Below the pieces are notes generated by a model. That model was given only the letters and a program-made list of their open reading frames with translations. It was not told the DNA's origin and searched no databases. A stretch of DNA of 63,617 nucleotides, counting the filler, from Deltaproteobacteria bacterium (GTDB lineage Bacteria; JAUYMQ01): the NCBI GenBank assembly GCA_030698575.1. It is 12 parts of 12 records of this genome, joined end to end, with 100 filler letters (N's around TTAATTAATTAA, not from the genome) between each part and the next. Parts side by side here need not be neighbours in the genome. Positions count along the whole stretch, not along the records: positions 29,630 to 32,639 come from JAUYMQ010000535.1; 11 more parts are not named here. One strand, given 5' to 3'. The position numbers and the translations under genes are program-made. Positions 10,983 through 60,527 of this stretch are shown one piece after another. The stretch's first letter is position 1. Every line of letters starts with the position of its first letter.

Positions 10983-11082
10983 NNNNNNNNNNNNNNNNNN
11001 NNNNNNNNNNNNNNNNNNNNNNNNNNTTAATTAATTAANNNNNNNNNNNNNNNNNNNNNNNNNNNNNNNNNNNNNNNNNNNN
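10983..11082. other. Artificial contig spacer (N44-TTAATTAATTAA-N44); first of 11
   Basis: Same 100-bp spacer at 13952, 20383, 26600, 29530, 32640, 35655, 42869, 46779, 51348 and 60330; it has stops in all six frames. Confidence 0.99.
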
Positions 11083-13951: not shown

Positions 13952-14248
13952 NNNNNNNNNNNNNNNNNNNNNNNNNNNNNNNNNNNNNNNNNNNNTTAAT
14001 TAATTAANNNNNNNNNNNNNNNNNNNNNNNNNNNNNNNNNNNNNNNNNNNNCCGCGGTTTCGCTCCCCGCTTCTTTCAGCGACGGCCTCGCGACCTCCGC
14101 CTTACGGTTTGCTTGGGTCCCCGCGACCAGGTTCCCGGAGGACTTGCACCTCCAAGTCGAAGCCCATGCTGGGCACACAAGAGAACGGGCGCGACAGAAA
14201 GCCGCGCCCGGTTCACACTGCGTATCAAGGATCAAGGATCAGAATGGA

Positions 14249-20382: not shown

Positions 20383-20482
20383 NNNNNNNNNNNNNNNNNN
20401 NNNNNNNNNNNNNNNNNNNNNNNNNNTTAATTAATTAANNNNNNNNNNNNNNNNNNNNNNNNNNNNNNNNNNNNNNNNNNNN

Positions 20483-26599: not shown

Positions 26600-26700
26600 N
26601 NNNNNNNNNNNNNNNNNNNNNNNNNNNNNNNNNNNNNNNNNNNTTAATTAATTAANNNNNNNNNNNNNNNNNNNNNNNNNNNNNNNNNNNNNNNNNNNNT

Positions 26701-28949: not shown

Positions 28950-29529
28950 ATGACCGCCCCCCGAGCGTTCATGCTCGCTGAGATTGTCGAGCGCCTGGGG
29001 GGCGAGCTGGTCGGTAATCCCCAGGTCATGATCAGGCAAGTCGCCACCCTGGAGTCCGCCGGGCCGGGCGACATCGCATTTCTGGGCCGAGGCAGATACC
29101 GGCCGCAACTGGGTGCGACGCGCGCCGCGGCGGTGATACTTCCCCACGCACAGCGGGATGCCACGGCAGCGCCCCGCATCCTTTGCGACGACCCATACCT
29201 CTATTTCGCGCGGGTTTGCGCGCTGCTCAACCCGCCACAGGAAGTCGCACCCGGCGTTCACCCGAGCGCAGTGATCGAGCCGGGTGCGCATATCGCCGCC
29301 TCTGCCCGCATCGGGCCTGGCTGCCATATCGGCAGGCGCGCGCAAGTCGGTGAAGGGGCGTGCATCGACGCGGGCTGCGCGATCGGGGATGATGCGTGCA
29401 TTGGTGAACGAAGCCGGCTGTATCCCTCCGTAGTGGTGTATGCACGCTGCATCATTGGCCGGCGGGCCGTCGTTCACTCCGGGGTGGTCATCGGGGCCGA
29501 CGGGTTTGGCATGGTGCTCGACGCCGGGC
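28950..29529 (+). CDS. lpxD: UDP-3-O-acylglucosamine N-acyltransferase (3'-truncated)
   Basis: DPYLYFA, hexapeptide repeats, IGADGFG; bamA-skp-lpxD order. Confidence 0.95.
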
Positions 29530-29651
29530 NNNNNNNNNNNNNNNNNNNNNNNNNNNNNNNNNNNNNNNNNNNNTTAATTAATTAANNNNNNNNNNNNNNN
29601 NNNNNNNNNNNNNNNNNNNNNNNNNNNNNCCCCGGCGGGTCGCTCCTGATG

Positions 29652-29924
29652 TCACTGCCTTACGTCAAAGAGCACAAAGCGCACAGGGGCCGTGCCCCCG
29701 TTGACCGCATCATGTGTCGCGTTTGACGGCCACTCGAACGGTTTCCCCGCTCCGATCCTGTTCTCGACGCCGCCTACGTGACTGGTCAGCGTTCCATCAA
29801 CGACGTACCCCATGCCGGGTTCGGCAGTGGCGCCCTCCGCCAGCAGCTTGTCACCTACCGGCGCCAACGCGGTCGCCCACGGCTGACCTAGTTGATGCCA
29901 GCCGCGATCTCCCCGTGCTATCAT
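29652..29924 (-). CDS. Cupin-like small protein or fragment
   Basis: GYVVDGTL...GAG..FEWP.NATH.AVN.G..PVRFV resembles a cupin barrel; N-terminus unclear. Confidence 0.45.
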   Translation of the reverse strand: MIARGDRGWHQLGQPWATALAPVGDKLLAEGATAEPGMGYVVDGTLTSHVGGVENRIGAGKPFEWPSNATHDAVNGGTAPVRFVLFDVRQ

Positions 29925-29956
29925 CGAAGCCTGATCGCCTACGGGAGGGCAACGCG

Positions 29957-30745
29957 ATGACGAACCAGGTAAGCGCAGCGAACATCGACCGCGAACGCCT
30001 GCGGGAGCAGGTCGCGTCGAAGTACACGGACGTGGCCAGCGCGCCCGAAAAGGGGTTTCACTTCCATACGGGCCGCCCGCTGGCGAAGATGCTGGGCTAC
30101 GAAGACGCGGACCTCGACTGGCTGCCGAAGTCGACGCTCGAGTCCTTTGCCGGGACGGGGAATCCCCTCTCGATGGGACGCCTGAACCCCGGCGAAGTGG
30201 TGGTCGACCTCGGCTGCGGAGCGGGCGTTGACGCTCTCCTCGCCGCGCGACAGGTCGGGCCGAAAGGTCGAGTGATCGCCGTGGACATGACCGCGGCGAT
30301 GCTGGCGAAGACGCGAATTGGCGCCCTCGCGCTGGGATTGGGGAACGTGGACGCTCGCTTCGGCTACGCCGAGGCGCTGCCGGTCGAGAGCGGGTCCGTG
30401 GACATCCTGATCAGCAACGGCGTAATCAACCTCTGCCCGGACAAGGTCGCGGTCATGCAGGAAGTCCGGCGCGTCTTGAAGCCCGGCGGCCGCATTCAGG
30501 TCGGGGACATCGTCGTCCACAAGGAAGTGCCCCAGGACGCCAGGGAAGACATCGATCTCTGGGCTGGCTGAATAGCGGGCGCTCTGCTGGAAGCAGAGTG
30601 GCGGTGGCTGCTGGGTCATCTGCGTTTCACCGACATCCGATGGGGCAGGCAGGTGGACGTCTTCTCAGGGTCGAAGCACGAATCCGACGCCAGGGAGTTC
30701 GATACGCGGGGCGTCACGCTTGCGGCCGTGAAGCCCAAGACCTAA
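29957..30745 (+). CDS. ArsM-like SAM methyltransferase, probable selenoprotein (Sec205, UGA 30569-30571)
   Basis: GGAGG then ATG 29957; VVDLGCGAG; LWAG-UGA-IAGAL matches the ArsM-type WxGCIAGA motif; frame stays open to TAA 30743-30745. Confidence 0.88.
30580..30600 (+). promoter_or_regulatory. Candidate bacterial SECIS element
   Basis: CG-CTCTGCT-GGA-AGCAGAG-TG hairpin; the G-initiated apical loop begins 18 nt after UGA. Confidence 0.75.
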
Positions 30746-30872
30746 GAGGCGCCACTCGGAGATGCAGCCGAGCGCTTTTCTGTGAGTATTGGTGCCCCGC
30801 CGAACCCGTTACGATCCCGCCATCGTGCGCATACGAGCTTGCCTTGCCCTGGACGAGACTCCCCCGCGGAAT

Positions 30873-31808
30873 TCAAAGGACCTTCACGCTCGCAACAAGA
30901 TTCTCTCTCGCCTGTGCCCTTCTTTCCCGGCCGAGACGTGAGAGCGTCATCGATGTCATGTCTGTAAGCATCTGGACAGTGCGCAAGGCGGCGAGGAAAG
31001 CGTCACTCAGCTGACCCTGCTCCTGGTAGCCATCGAGAATCGCCTGCCTGTCCGTATTGCGAGGCCAACGAACGTCAAAGCCAGGGTGGCTGATATAAGC
31101 GTCACCGAAGTCGATCAACCCTGAGAACCTGAGGGTGGTTGGATCGACGAAGGTGTGTTCTGGTCCGGGGTTGGAGTGGAGGGCGACGAAGGCCGAGTCT
31201 GGCTGCGGCTGGATGAGCGCCATTGCCGTCTCGGCCAGGGTCTCGGGCGATAGCGGAAGGTCCCAGCCGGCGTCGTCGCCATGCGCGGCTGCCACAGCCC
31301 CTTCAAAGCCTCGCTGAAGGCGCGCCCTGAGGTCCTGGAATGAGTCATCGGCCGGGAACAGACCGCAGCTTCTCAGCGGCGACTGGTCAACGCTATGAAG
31401 CTCGTGCAGGGAGCGACCGAGAGCCTGCAGGGTCCTTCTTCGCTCTTCACCTTCGAGGACAACTTGGCGCGCGGCGACGCCAGGCAGGCGAGTCATGCAA
31501 ATGTACTCGACGTCGCCGTCACGCCCGTAGCCGAGCGCTCTCGGGACGCTGATATCAGGATAGCGGGCGAGGACATCCAGGAAGACGGCTTCCTTTTCGA
31601 GGCTCGTCCGGGGCCGCACGCGATGCGGTCTCTGGACCTTCAATACAATGGCGTCGTCCACGAAGTAAGCCCTCGCCTCACCGCCCGATTCGTCGACAGC
31701 CGTGAGCGTCGTGGCGGTCGTGTGCTTTCGGACCAGGGACAGCACACGTCCTTCGTCCAGAACGGGGTCTGCCGGGTCGGGTTGTCTCAGTGCCCCTCCC
31801 GTGACCAT
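30873..31808 (-). CDS. APH/choline-kinase fold protein with altered catalytic loop
   Basis: IVLK, EKE helix, LHSNPGPEH, IDFGDA. Confidence 0.8.
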   Translation of the reverse strand: MVTGGALRQPDPADPVLDEGRVLSLVRKHTTATTLTAVDESGGEARAYFVDDAIVLKVQRPHRVRPRTSLEKEAVFLDVLARYPDISVPRALGYGRDGDVEYICMTRLPGVAARQVVLEGEERRRTLQALGRSLHELHSVDQSPLRSCGLFPADDSFQDLRARLQRGFEGAVAAAHGDDAGWDLPLSPETLAETAMALIQPQPDSAFVALHSNPGPEHTFVDPTTLRFSGLIDFGDAYISHPGFDVRWPRNTDRQAILDGYQEQGQLSDAFLAALRTVQMLTDMTSMTLSRLGRERRAQARENLVASVKVL

Positions 31809-31831
31809 CGACTTACTACCTTCCGCCTCCG

Positions 31832-32639
31832 CTAGATCTCTTGCAGCAGGGAGTGCAGGTTGTCCTCTGCTCGCCCCGGTGGCTCTCGACGGCGCAGCAC
31901 CGAGGCCAACTCGCCGAGAATGAGCCCCACCCGCCAGGTGCGGGCGAACGCGTCATCGACGGGGCCTTGATCAGTGTAGCCGGCGTACACCGCGCCGCGG
32001 TCGGCGGGGTTCCGCCAGGGCCGCAGGTCGAAGGCCGGGTGGCTGATGTAGGCGTCGCCAAAGTCGATGAGCCCGGAGAGTGCCACGGTCTCCAGGTTCA
32101 CGAAGACGTGCTCGCCGGCGGGATTGGAGTGAAGGGGGGCGCGATGGGTCGTGTCAGGGAGCGCCTCCAGCGCCCTGGCGGCGACCTCCTCGGCTGACAG
32201 CCGGAGACGCCACTCCTCGGGGAGTTCGTTCACGGCGGCGACAATCTGAGAGAAAAGTGTCTCCAGGCGCGCCTTTAGCTCCCCAGAACCGCCGTCTTCC
32301 GCGAACAAGCCGCTTTCAGAGAAAGGAGCCAGCGGAAGCGCATGGAGCCGGCGAAGCGTCCTGCCGAGGTCGCGGAGCACTCGTTGCCGCTGCTCCGACG
32401 TGAGGTCTGCGCGGCGCAGCGGCACGCCGGGAACCCGAGTCATGCAGACGTACTCCACGCCATTCTCCCGTCCGTATCCCAGCGGCTCTGGCGCCGGGAT
32501 GCTGGCGTCGCTGGCAAGCTGGCTGAGGAAGAAGGCTTCCTTCTCCAGGCTGGTCTCGAACTCCTCCACAACCCGCGCTCGCAACCGAGCGGGGCGATGG
32601 GTCTTCAAGACAATCGAGTCATCAATGAAGTAGGCTCTG
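31832..32639 (-). CDS. Second APH-fold paralogue (5'-truncated)
   Basis: RAYFIDDSIVLK, TSLEKEAFFL, LHSNPAGEH, IDFGDAYISHP. Confidence 0.8.
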
Positions 32640-32739
32640 NNNNNNNNNNNNNNNNNNNNNNNNNNNNNNNNNNNNNNNNNNNNTTAATTAATTAANNNNN
32701 NNNNNNNNNNNNNNNNNNNNNNNNNNNNNNNNNNNNNNN

Positions 32740-35654: not shown

Positions 35655-35754
35655 NNNNNNNNNNNNNNNNNNNNNNNNNNNNNNNNNNNNNNNNNNNNTT
35701 AATTAATTAANNNNNNNNNNNNNNNNNNNNNNNNNNNNNNNNNNNNNNNNNNNN

Positions 35755-42868: not shown

Positions 42869-42968
42869 NNNNNNNNNNNNNNNNNNNNNNNNNNNNNNNN
42901 NNNNNNNNNNNNTTAATTAATTAANNNNNNNNNNNNNNNNNNNNNNNNNNNNNNNNNNNNNNNNNNNN

Positions 42969-46767: not shown

Positions 46768-46878
46768 CCTGTCATAGGNNNNNNNNNNNNNNNNNNNNNN
46801 NNNNNNNNNNNNNNNNNNNNNNTTAATTAATTAANNNNNNNNNNNNNNNNNNNNNNNNNNNNNNNNNNNNNNNNNNNN

Positions 46879-49778: not shown

Positions 49779-49821
49779 GGGCCGTTAGCTCAGTTGGTAG
49801 AGCATCGGACTTTTAATCCGA
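49779..49821 (+). tRNA. tRNA-Lys(UUU) 5' fragment, probable att site
   Basis: GGGCCGT-TA-GCTC-AGTTGGTA-GAGC-A-TCGGA-CTTTTAA-TCCGA, then no T-arm or 3' acceptor strand. Confidence 0.85.
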
Positions 49822-50016
49822 CAGGAGCGGATCGCGAGTTTTCCAGTGGATTCGCATAAGACAGCGAACCACCAAGAGAAACCCCAGTCTCCGGTGCGAA
49901 CTGGACGGACTGAAAAACACCCCGCGGACGCAATAACAGACGCGCGGCACCAAGAATATCCCGAAGGCGATTCGCTGGAGGCTCCCGGGCAGGAGCCTCT
50001 TCCATTTGGAGGCGGT

Positions 50017-51347: not shown

Positions 51348-51447
51348 NNNNNNNNNNNNNNNNNNNNNNNNNNNNNNNNNNNNNNNNNNNNTTAATTAAT
51401 TAANNNNNNNNNNNNNNNNNNNNNNNNNNNNNNNNNNNNNNNNNNNN

Positions 51448-60329: not shown

Positions 60330-60527
60330 NNNNNNNNNNNNNNNNNNNNNNNNNNNNNNNNNNNNNNNNNNNNTTAATTAATTAANNNNNNNNNNNNNNN
60401 NNNNNNNNNNNNNNNNNNNNNNNNNNNNNCGCATCGAAGCAGTGTGCCGCCACCTGGCTTCACGGGGCGTGGTCGCCGCCACGCTCACGGAGGCCGCCCG
60501 CGGCGTCCGCGCCGGCGGAGGCGCGGC

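Follow-up and report, generated by a model that had tools for sequence, protein, structure and literature searches.

Selenocysteine (Sec) recoding in enzymes resembling the arsenite methyltransferase ArsM is already known and has been catalogued since 2007–2008. In its available text, PMC13188914 lists an "Arsenite methyltransferase" (NF008823) with one Sec in a UxxG motif as "experimentally verified", citing Fomenko et al. (2007), and an arsenite methyltransferase selenoprotein family also appears in the accessible tables of PMC9312934 and in the accessible part of the 2008 GOS (Global Ocean Sampling) study (PMC2398784). For three fusion families, NF041537, NF041536 and NF047649, the same text of PMC13188914 cites Haft and Tolstoy (2025). 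Here, we describe a related gene from the genome of a Deltaproteobacteria bacterium (GCA_030698575.1), which is located on a 3,010-bp contig (29630–32639) within the window, i.e. the complete stretch of 63,617 nucleotides that was analyzed. The gene encodes a stand-alone methyltransferase with the ArsM fold and contains an in-frame UGA, which almost certainly specifies Sec in this family and, with slightly less assurance, also in the present host.

The in-frame UGA and its hairpin

From an ATG at 29957, which is preceded by a Shine-Dalgarno-like stretch (GGGAGGG), a single frame of 262 codons extends to a TAA at 30743–30745 and contains one TGA at 30569–30571 (codon 205). Under translation table 11, the open reading frame (ORF) closes at this TGA after ...DIDLWAG and yields 204 aa. 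Beyond the TGA, the frame continues for 57 codons (IAGALLEAEW...GVTLAAVKPKT), and reading TGA as Sec gives a protein of 262 aa with U205. An earlier note on this DNA had proposed a hidden selenoprotein on these grounds, together with a 9-bp hairpin whose GGA loop starts 18 nt past the UGA. Our translation and our coordinates agree with both proposals, and the comparison with relatives bears out the selenoprotein itself.

For this comparison we used 160 DNA loci, consisting of the best 80 from contigs of one genome per species and the best 80 from metagenomes. TGA is present at the respective column in 143 of the 160 loci (71/80 from genomes, 72/80 from metagenomes) and extends to relatives of ~52% identity, while TGC or TGT is found in ten (9/80 from genomes and, as TGC, 1/80 from metagenomes); the remaining seven, all from metagenomes, gave no reading with the column pattern. 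The same pairing is visible at the protein level. Among the 120 protein matches listed, 19 are 204–206 aa long, cover 78% of the query and end in ...LW(A/S)G, one of them being an NCBI entry named merely "methyltransferase domain-containing protein"; the others comprise ~230–356 aa and cover 92–100%. In an alignment of six short and 13 full-length homologues, all 13 full-length proteins carry Cys at the U205 column within LWS(N/S)CIAGAL, at 59–69% identity to the window protein. Sec and Cys forms alike conserve the 57 codons beyond the TGA and share the tail EW.W.L...GF...RWG...DV(F/Y)SGSKHESDA.EF.TRG.

Some individual loci show peculiarities in this region. L037 and L067 contain an extra TAA or TAG within the conserved tail (KH*SS in L037, NF*TY in L067), the N-terminus of L067 is degraded, and both may be decaying copies or assembly errors. 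A sister clade of ~53% identity (L061, L075 and L079, also L070, L077 and L080) has an extra tail of ~17 residues ending in ...(A/K)(A/L)LNC-x-(V/I)-P, with the Cys 4 or 5 residues before the end. Membership of L061, L075 and L079 in the "UXPK-star" family NF047649 was considered and rejected, as they reach 201–224 bits against a cut-off of 460.

Directly 3' of the UGA lies a hairpin of 9 bp including one G-U pair (arms 30580–30588 and 30592–30600) with the loop GGA at 30589–30591; the gap between UGA and loop is 17 nt, which makes the first loop base the 18th base past the UGA. The model for bacterial Sec insertion sequence (bSECIS) elements given in section 5 of PMC13188914 asks for a loop of 3–9 nt, an upper stem of 4–16 bp, a G in the first two loop positions, a UGA-to-loop distance of 16–37 nt and a minimum free energy of at most −7.5 kcal/mol. 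With a loop of 3 nt, a stem of 9 bp, a gap of 17 nt and −14.5 kcal/mol the hairpin agrees with this model, and in isolation it has a z-score of −3.7, with three of 200 shuffles equally good. It is restricted to the TGA forms, and the nine Cys forms carry unrelated sequence at the hairpin site. Nearly all TGA forms read GCU CUG CUG, a loop codon and GCA GAG, the loop codon standing for E, Y, A, G, S or D; four relatives have an alternative hairpin (CUCCUC-GUN-GAGGAG) at the equivalent site and one has a compensated CUGCC/GGCAG hairpin. In fixed-column pair counting, 91% of the cells are paired in the hairpin versus 26–60% when the partners are slid. Among 137 distinct Sec forms, the synonymous-codon entropy of codons +4 to +9 is 0.06–0.26 bits, compared to a mean of 1.21 bits (minimum 0.46) for 41 other conserved codons, and the Ala codons of the hairpin are GCT and GCA despite the GC-rich genomes. 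Judged by these codons, the hairpin is kept by synonymous-site constraint, which is a stronger measure than covariation. A permissive Rfam search of 29000–32000 returned four chance-level matches, none of them a SECIS.

Besides the signal, relatives also have the decoding machinery. In the genomes of five relatives with the TGA form, counting matches above curated cut-offs, we found selA in four, selB in four, selD in all five and tRNA-Sec in three; the genome without selA and selB above cut-off is a fragmented assembly. In four of the five genomes (L092–L095; G005, G002, G001, G004), selD has an in-frame TGA of its own, a well-known feature of selenophosphate synthetases that contain Sec.

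A number of results speak against recoding at this locus. In its natural context the z-score of the hairpin drops to −1.47 (48 nt) and −1.28 (81 nt), so in this GC-rich DNA the folding energy is not unusual; the stability alone is within chance, and the case is carried by the conservation across relatives. Changes on both sides are found in just three of nine pairs and the covariation score is matched by 113 of 500 shuffles, a thin signal because the hairpin sequence barely varies. One Cys form (L022) folds strongly too, into a different structure. Finally, tblastn with the SelA, SelB and SelD proteins of relatives detected none of the three genes in the 63.6-kb window, and neither ARAGORN, which predicts no tRNA at all, nor Rfam detected a tRNA-Sec there. 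Rfam reports one tRNA at 49779–49834 (+) with 32 bits (gathering score 29), where ARAGORN finds none; at a length of just 56 nt, the match could be spurious or represent a tRNA fragment.

Taking both sides together, we propose that the hairpin acts as a SECIS and would recruit SelB with Sec-tRNA(Sec) as the ribosome meets the UGA. Sec would be inserted at position 205, and translation would continue to the TAA.

Fold, ligand positions and candidate substrates

The encoded protein has a class-I S-adenosylmethionine (SAM) methyltransferase domain in Pfam (Methyltransf_31, 4.2e-30; also Methyltransf_25/11), and its best NCBIfam match is the arsenite methyltransferase model NF008823 with 222.1 bits, below the cut-off of 263. 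Seven Sec-form relatives score 217–239 bits and one Cys form 226 bits with this model, and none of these eight reaches any NCBIfam cut-off, which explains the truncated product in public records. As the earlier note had expected of standard pipelines, the gene call in the window is 204 aa long, as are, within two residues, the 19 short homologues mentioned above. Gene callers and NCBI family models end this gene, like those of at least 143 relatives, after 204 residues. A quarter of the fold is thereby lost along with the key residue, and many records would be repaired by a family model made for this clade.

An AlphaFold2 model built with 66 sequences has a mean predicted local distance difference test score (pLDDT) of 92.6 and a predicted template modeling score (pTM) of 0.91. 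The read-through part contributes two helices (212–221, 242–247) and two strands (225–233, 251–258) with a pLDDT of 85–97 per 10-residue block. The top 13 fold matches in the PDB (Foldseek) are all ArsM/AS3MT structures, with a TM-score TMq of 0.61–0.72 over 226–253 aligned columns. In the alignment to 5evj and 4fr0, the cysteines of F(W/Y)GCG (GCGNP), ISNCV and GEC(L)(A/G)GAL fall in the columns of T67, G155 and U205, respectively. The As(III)-binding cysteines of CmArsM are Cys72, Cys174 and Cys224. Two of the three are replaced by Thr67 and Gly155 and the third by Sec205, in line with the earlier observation that the other ArsM cysteines are missing. These replacements are a property of the entire clade, as a survey of 81 rows (72 Sec and nine Cys forms) has T, V or M at position 67 and G at position 155 in all 77 rows read, and the motif GFHFHTGR is invariant wherever it is readable.

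The product would thus be an ArsM/AS3MT-fold methyltransferase that depends on SAM and lacks the extra C-terminal domain of ArsM. Sec205 falls in the column of CmArsM Cys224, a residue that holds As(III) beside the methyl group of SAM, and may be the only soft nucleophile or ligand by which the acceptor is held during methyl transfer. We regard the complete explanation, i.e. Sec recoding via a bSECIS and an ArsM-fold methyltransferase in which Sec205 holds the acceptor, as highly probable.

Which acceptor is bound is a separate matter. Canonical ArsM proteins, which score above the NF008823 cut-off, have no TGA and carry the N-terminal CC, GCGNP, SNCV and C-x-x-G motifs, coexist with a sub-cut-off TGA paralogue in four of five genomes examined. 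This coexistence and the absence of two of the three arsenic ligands argue that arsenite is probably not the substrate of this clade; the suggestion of the earlier note that the enzyme may act on something other than arsenite holds to the extent that we infer it from these two observations. The genomic neighborhood was analyzed for the 81 loci, using crude ORFs and single-linkage clusters. A cluster of rhodanese-domain ORFs, which includes metallo-beta-lactamase-plus-rhodanese and ArsR-HTH-plus-rhodanese (HTH, helix-turn-helix) proteins, is found within 4 kb in 29 loci and adjoins the gene on the same strand within 400 nt in 14 (nine upstream, five downstream). DsrE-family genes adjoin it in the same manner in ten loci (seven upstream, three downstream). 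Other recurrent neighbors are MFS transporters, TetR, OsmC and DUF4395, and several of the clusters without Pfam match are probably antisense artefacts. These genes suggest a flavor of sulfur trafficking in a minority of the loci.

Our preferred, though tentative, reading from sequence comparison is that the acceptor could be a sulfur or selenium species, e.g. sulfane sulfur or selenide bound as a Se-S or Se-Se adduct. What tells against such a substrate is that sulfur-type neighbors are confined to roughly a quarter to a third of the loci and were identified through crude ORF clusters, that the contig of the window gene itself has no sulfur genes among a cupin and two APH kinases, and that Cys160 (NLCPDK) of the window protein could serve as a second arsenic ligand.

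The last point leads to the alternative that the enzyme does methylate arsenite or methylarsenite, with Sec205 and Cys160 standing in for Cys174 and Cys224, and that the catalogue name is functionally correct for this clade. The fold and the best sequence matches are those of ArsM/AS3MT, Sec occupies an arsenic-ligand column, and Cys160 is shared by 46 of the 72 Sec forms. Moreover, a Bacillus ArsM is reportedly active with only two conserved cysteines. However, Cys160 is not conserved: 22 of the 72 Sec forms have T, M, V or S instead and four more gave no reading, eight of the nine Cys forms have T, L or I, and cysteine is entirely lacking in some Sec forms. The equivalents of Cys72 and Cys174 are likewise lost throughout, the four-Cys canonical ArsM is present alongside, no ars genes appear among the recurrent neighbors of the 81 loci in the crude clusters, and the NF008823 score stays under the cut-off. 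We consider this alternative unlikely, and a trivalent arsenical or another metalloid, held together with Cys160, would be a less probable acceptor, albeit a serious rival to the sulfur or selenium species; some further type of acceptor accounts for the likelihood that remains.

Improbable readings of the UGA as a stop or standard codon

If the TGA were a true stop, resulting from a nonsense mutation, pseudogene formation or an assembly error, the product would be a truncated methyltransferase of 204 residues. Such a product is what standard gene calling yields, and the Sec machinery of the window's host is not established by the 63.6 kb at hand, which lack selA, selB and selD. Nevertheless, we can hardly credit this explanation. 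TGA occupies the equivalent column in the great majority of the relatives (143/160, to ~52% identity), the frame beyond it is unbroken and conserved, synonymous sites within the hairpin are constrained, and according to the model a protein of 204 residues would be without four secondary structure elements.

The TGA is also present in independent assemblies. In the metagenome contigs of four runs, no other letter is found at this codon, and two of the runs bridge it. The sequencing runs listed for this region include none of RNA. The bridging contigs, X3 record 17 and X5 record 26, originate from runs of two other studies and carry the TGA unchanged; since they span the TGA and none of the runs differs there, an assembly error is excluded. 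The tables for X1 and X2 are identical, and these runs may stem from the source sample or be duplicate filings of a single data set; their contigs break at or near the TGA-hairpin region (one record ends at 30571). No single piece among the run contigs listed covers the whole stretch. In all four runs, the depth rises from ~3–5 to 11–85 over 30551–30612, with loose ends on both sides, as expected from a UGA-plus-SECIS segment that is common to many organisms. Indeed, a segment of 40–60 nt with UGA and hairpin seems to be shared by many organisms or genes in those samples at ≥90% identity, and it seems to be this segment that breaks the assemblies at 30551–30612.

That the UGA is instead read as a standard amino acid (Trp, Cys or Gly) by a reassigned code or near-cognate suppression is extremely improbable, although the frame is open under any code in which TGA is a sense codon, since two neighboring genes end in TGA, which is thus an ordinary stop on the contig 29630–32639 and excludes general reassignment, the aligned residue of the homologues is always Cys, the classic partner of Sec, the SECIS-type hairpin accompanies TGA forms only, the TGA-form relatives carry selA, selB, selD and tRNA-Sec, and selA is found in only two of five Cys-form genomes, a weak point given the small numbers and incomplete metagenome-assembled genomes.

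Genomic surroundings, distribution and comparison with known systems

The window is composed of 12 contigs with a GC content of 61–69% per piece, joined by linkers of N44, 12 AT-only nucleotides and N44 (10983–11082, 13952–14051, 20383–20482, 26600–26699, 29530–29629, 32640–32739, 35655–35754, 42869–42968, 46779–46878, 51348–51447 and 60330–60429). Genes on different pieces are possibly neither neighbors nor from one organism. The translations of the preceding piece, read by eye, apparently encode BamA-, Skp- and LpxD-like proteins. On the contig of the methyltransferase gene, Pfam identifies one cupin and two APH-type kinases as neighbors (Table 1). The promoter scan gave one match, while 0.2 would be expected from shuffles; it is no more than a pattern match and no evidence of function. 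The terminator scan gave two matches in the region versus 1.0 expected and is likewise a pattern match that is weak alone, but it lies where one would expect it for a gene ending at 30745 and not at 30571.

Table 1. Features on the contig of the methyltransferase gene (positions along the window).
Feature	Position	Strand	Basis
Divergent neighbor, 90-aa cupin-domain protein, stop = TGA	29652..29924	-	Pfam Cupin_2 5e-09
Sigma-70-like promoter match (ATGCCA, 18 nt spacer, TATCAT, with TG)	29895..29924	+	Consensus scan
Predicted selenoprotein gene, ArsM-fold SAM-dependent methyltransferase, Sec at codon 205	29957..30745	+	Translation, Pfam, NCBIfam, homologues, AlphaFold2, PDB fold matches
UGA, predicted selenocysteine U205, column of CmArsM Cys224	30569..30571	+	Sec/Cys pairs, PDB alignment
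57 read-through codons, C-terminal part of ArsM-like fold	30572..30742	+	Conserved in Sec and Cys forms; pLDDT 85–97
Candidate bSECIS hairpin, 9-bp stem, loop GGA	30580..30600	+	Folding, bSECIS criteria, conservation
Terminator-like hairpin followed by T run, 10 nt past TAA	30755..30772	+	Pattern scan
Convergent neighbor, 311-aa APH-family phosphotransferase, stop = TGA	30873..31808	-	Pfam APH 1.4e-21

The lone-Sec clade is widespread in Chloroflexota and also occurs in Gemmatimonadota, Acidobacteriota, Eisenbacteria, Rubrobacteraceae and others. In a quick maximum-likelihood tree of 80 rows, from which the 5'-truncated locus L034 was left out, the window protein groups with Sec forms of Chloroflexota, L002 and L011 being nearest. 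The Cys forms are nested within Sec clades, and at least five Sec/Cys changes are needed on the tree, three of them forced by well-supported branches. The genomes with the Cys orthologues L078 and L022 each carry a further ArsM-like paralogue with one in-frame TGA (L186 at G010:C151:6761-7348, and G008:C1:1026601-1027209). The L186 paralogue reads ...ISNGVINLS...FAGULGGAL; LGLGNP replaces GTGNP, the FHFH motif is missing, and the protein represents another lone-Sec clade. At L057, an ORF beginning MDEKQHWDDVYG... lies directly downstream of the Sec methyltransferase (~5810 onward) and is a second methyltransferase gene, judging by its SAM motif VDVGGGTS.

It seems conceivable, if somewhat doubtful, that the lone-Sec clade is a non-arsenic enzyme in which one Sec captures and methylates a sulfur or selenium species (sulfane sulfur via rhodanese or DsrE, or selenide), and that Sec is ancestral and was replaced by Cys several times where the Sec trait was lost. 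Under this proposal, the clade would be marked by GFHFHTGR, by Thr and Gly at two positions that are cysteines in ArsM, and by a size of ~260 aa. If a sulfur or selenium substrate is true, it would mean a new selenium-dependent route to methylated chalcogens in Chloroflexota of soil and groundwater. With two of three arsenic ligands missing and canonical ArsM coexisting, the name "arsenite methyltransferase" is probably misleading for the lone-Sec clade, and surveys based on PRK11873-like matches may overcount arsenic methylation.

For the substrate class alone, an analogy is provided by MddH, MddM1 and MddM2, which are H2S/methanethiol S-methyltransferases and illustrate that bacteria methylate sulfide and thiols by means of enzymes with this type of fold (available text of PMC11445057 and PMC12904073). 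They are small cytosolic SAM-dependent methyltransferases of the UbiE/UbiG class, and the accessible part of their descriptions contains nothing pointing to a catalytic Cys or Sec; arsenite and ArsM have no occurrence in either paper and selenocysteine has none in PMC12904073. Our literature search found no biochemical characterization of the lone-Sec clade.

The canonical ArsM/AS3MT enzymes (CmArsM 4fr0/4fsd/6cx6, CrArsM 5evj, human AS3MT 8xt7) have the fold in common with the window protein, together with ~30–35% identity over residues 55–234, the GxGxG SAM motif and the ...C-x-x-G-A-L loop. In contrast, they are 320–390 aa long, compared to 262 aa and no third domain in the window protein. 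Their N-terminal CC region corresponds to the invariant GFHFHTGR of the clade, and Cys72 is changed to Thr, Cys174 to Gly and Cys224 to Sec. With the fusion families NF041537 (ArsM/AhpD), NF041536 (ArsM/DUF2284) and NF047649 (methyltransferase/UXPK-star), ~220–250 residues of the methyltransferase domain align at E-values of 1e-60 to 1e-63, including the UxxG Sec site. However, the window protein has no fused AhpD or DUF2284 and no second Sec, and with 207, 213.6 and 203.9 bits for NF041536, NF041537 and NF047649 it remains below the cut-offs of 575, 510 and 460; it is a stand-alone, single-Sec protein.

The catalogued arsenite methyltransferase selenoprotein (PRK11873/NF008823), as far as its accessible listing goes, likewise has a UxxG motif, which corresponds to U205-I-A-G208 of the window protein with its putative SECIS directly 3' of the UGA. 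This match refers to the listed motif and domain and not to the sequence of the catalogued representative (WP_011987699.1), and the domain score of the window protein is below the cut-off. Given this listing and the three related selenoprotein models of NCBIfam, the novelty assigned to the gene by the earlier note was overrated. Recoding as such is known in a known family, and the point of note that remains in comparison with these systems is an unannotated and widespread lone-Sec clade.

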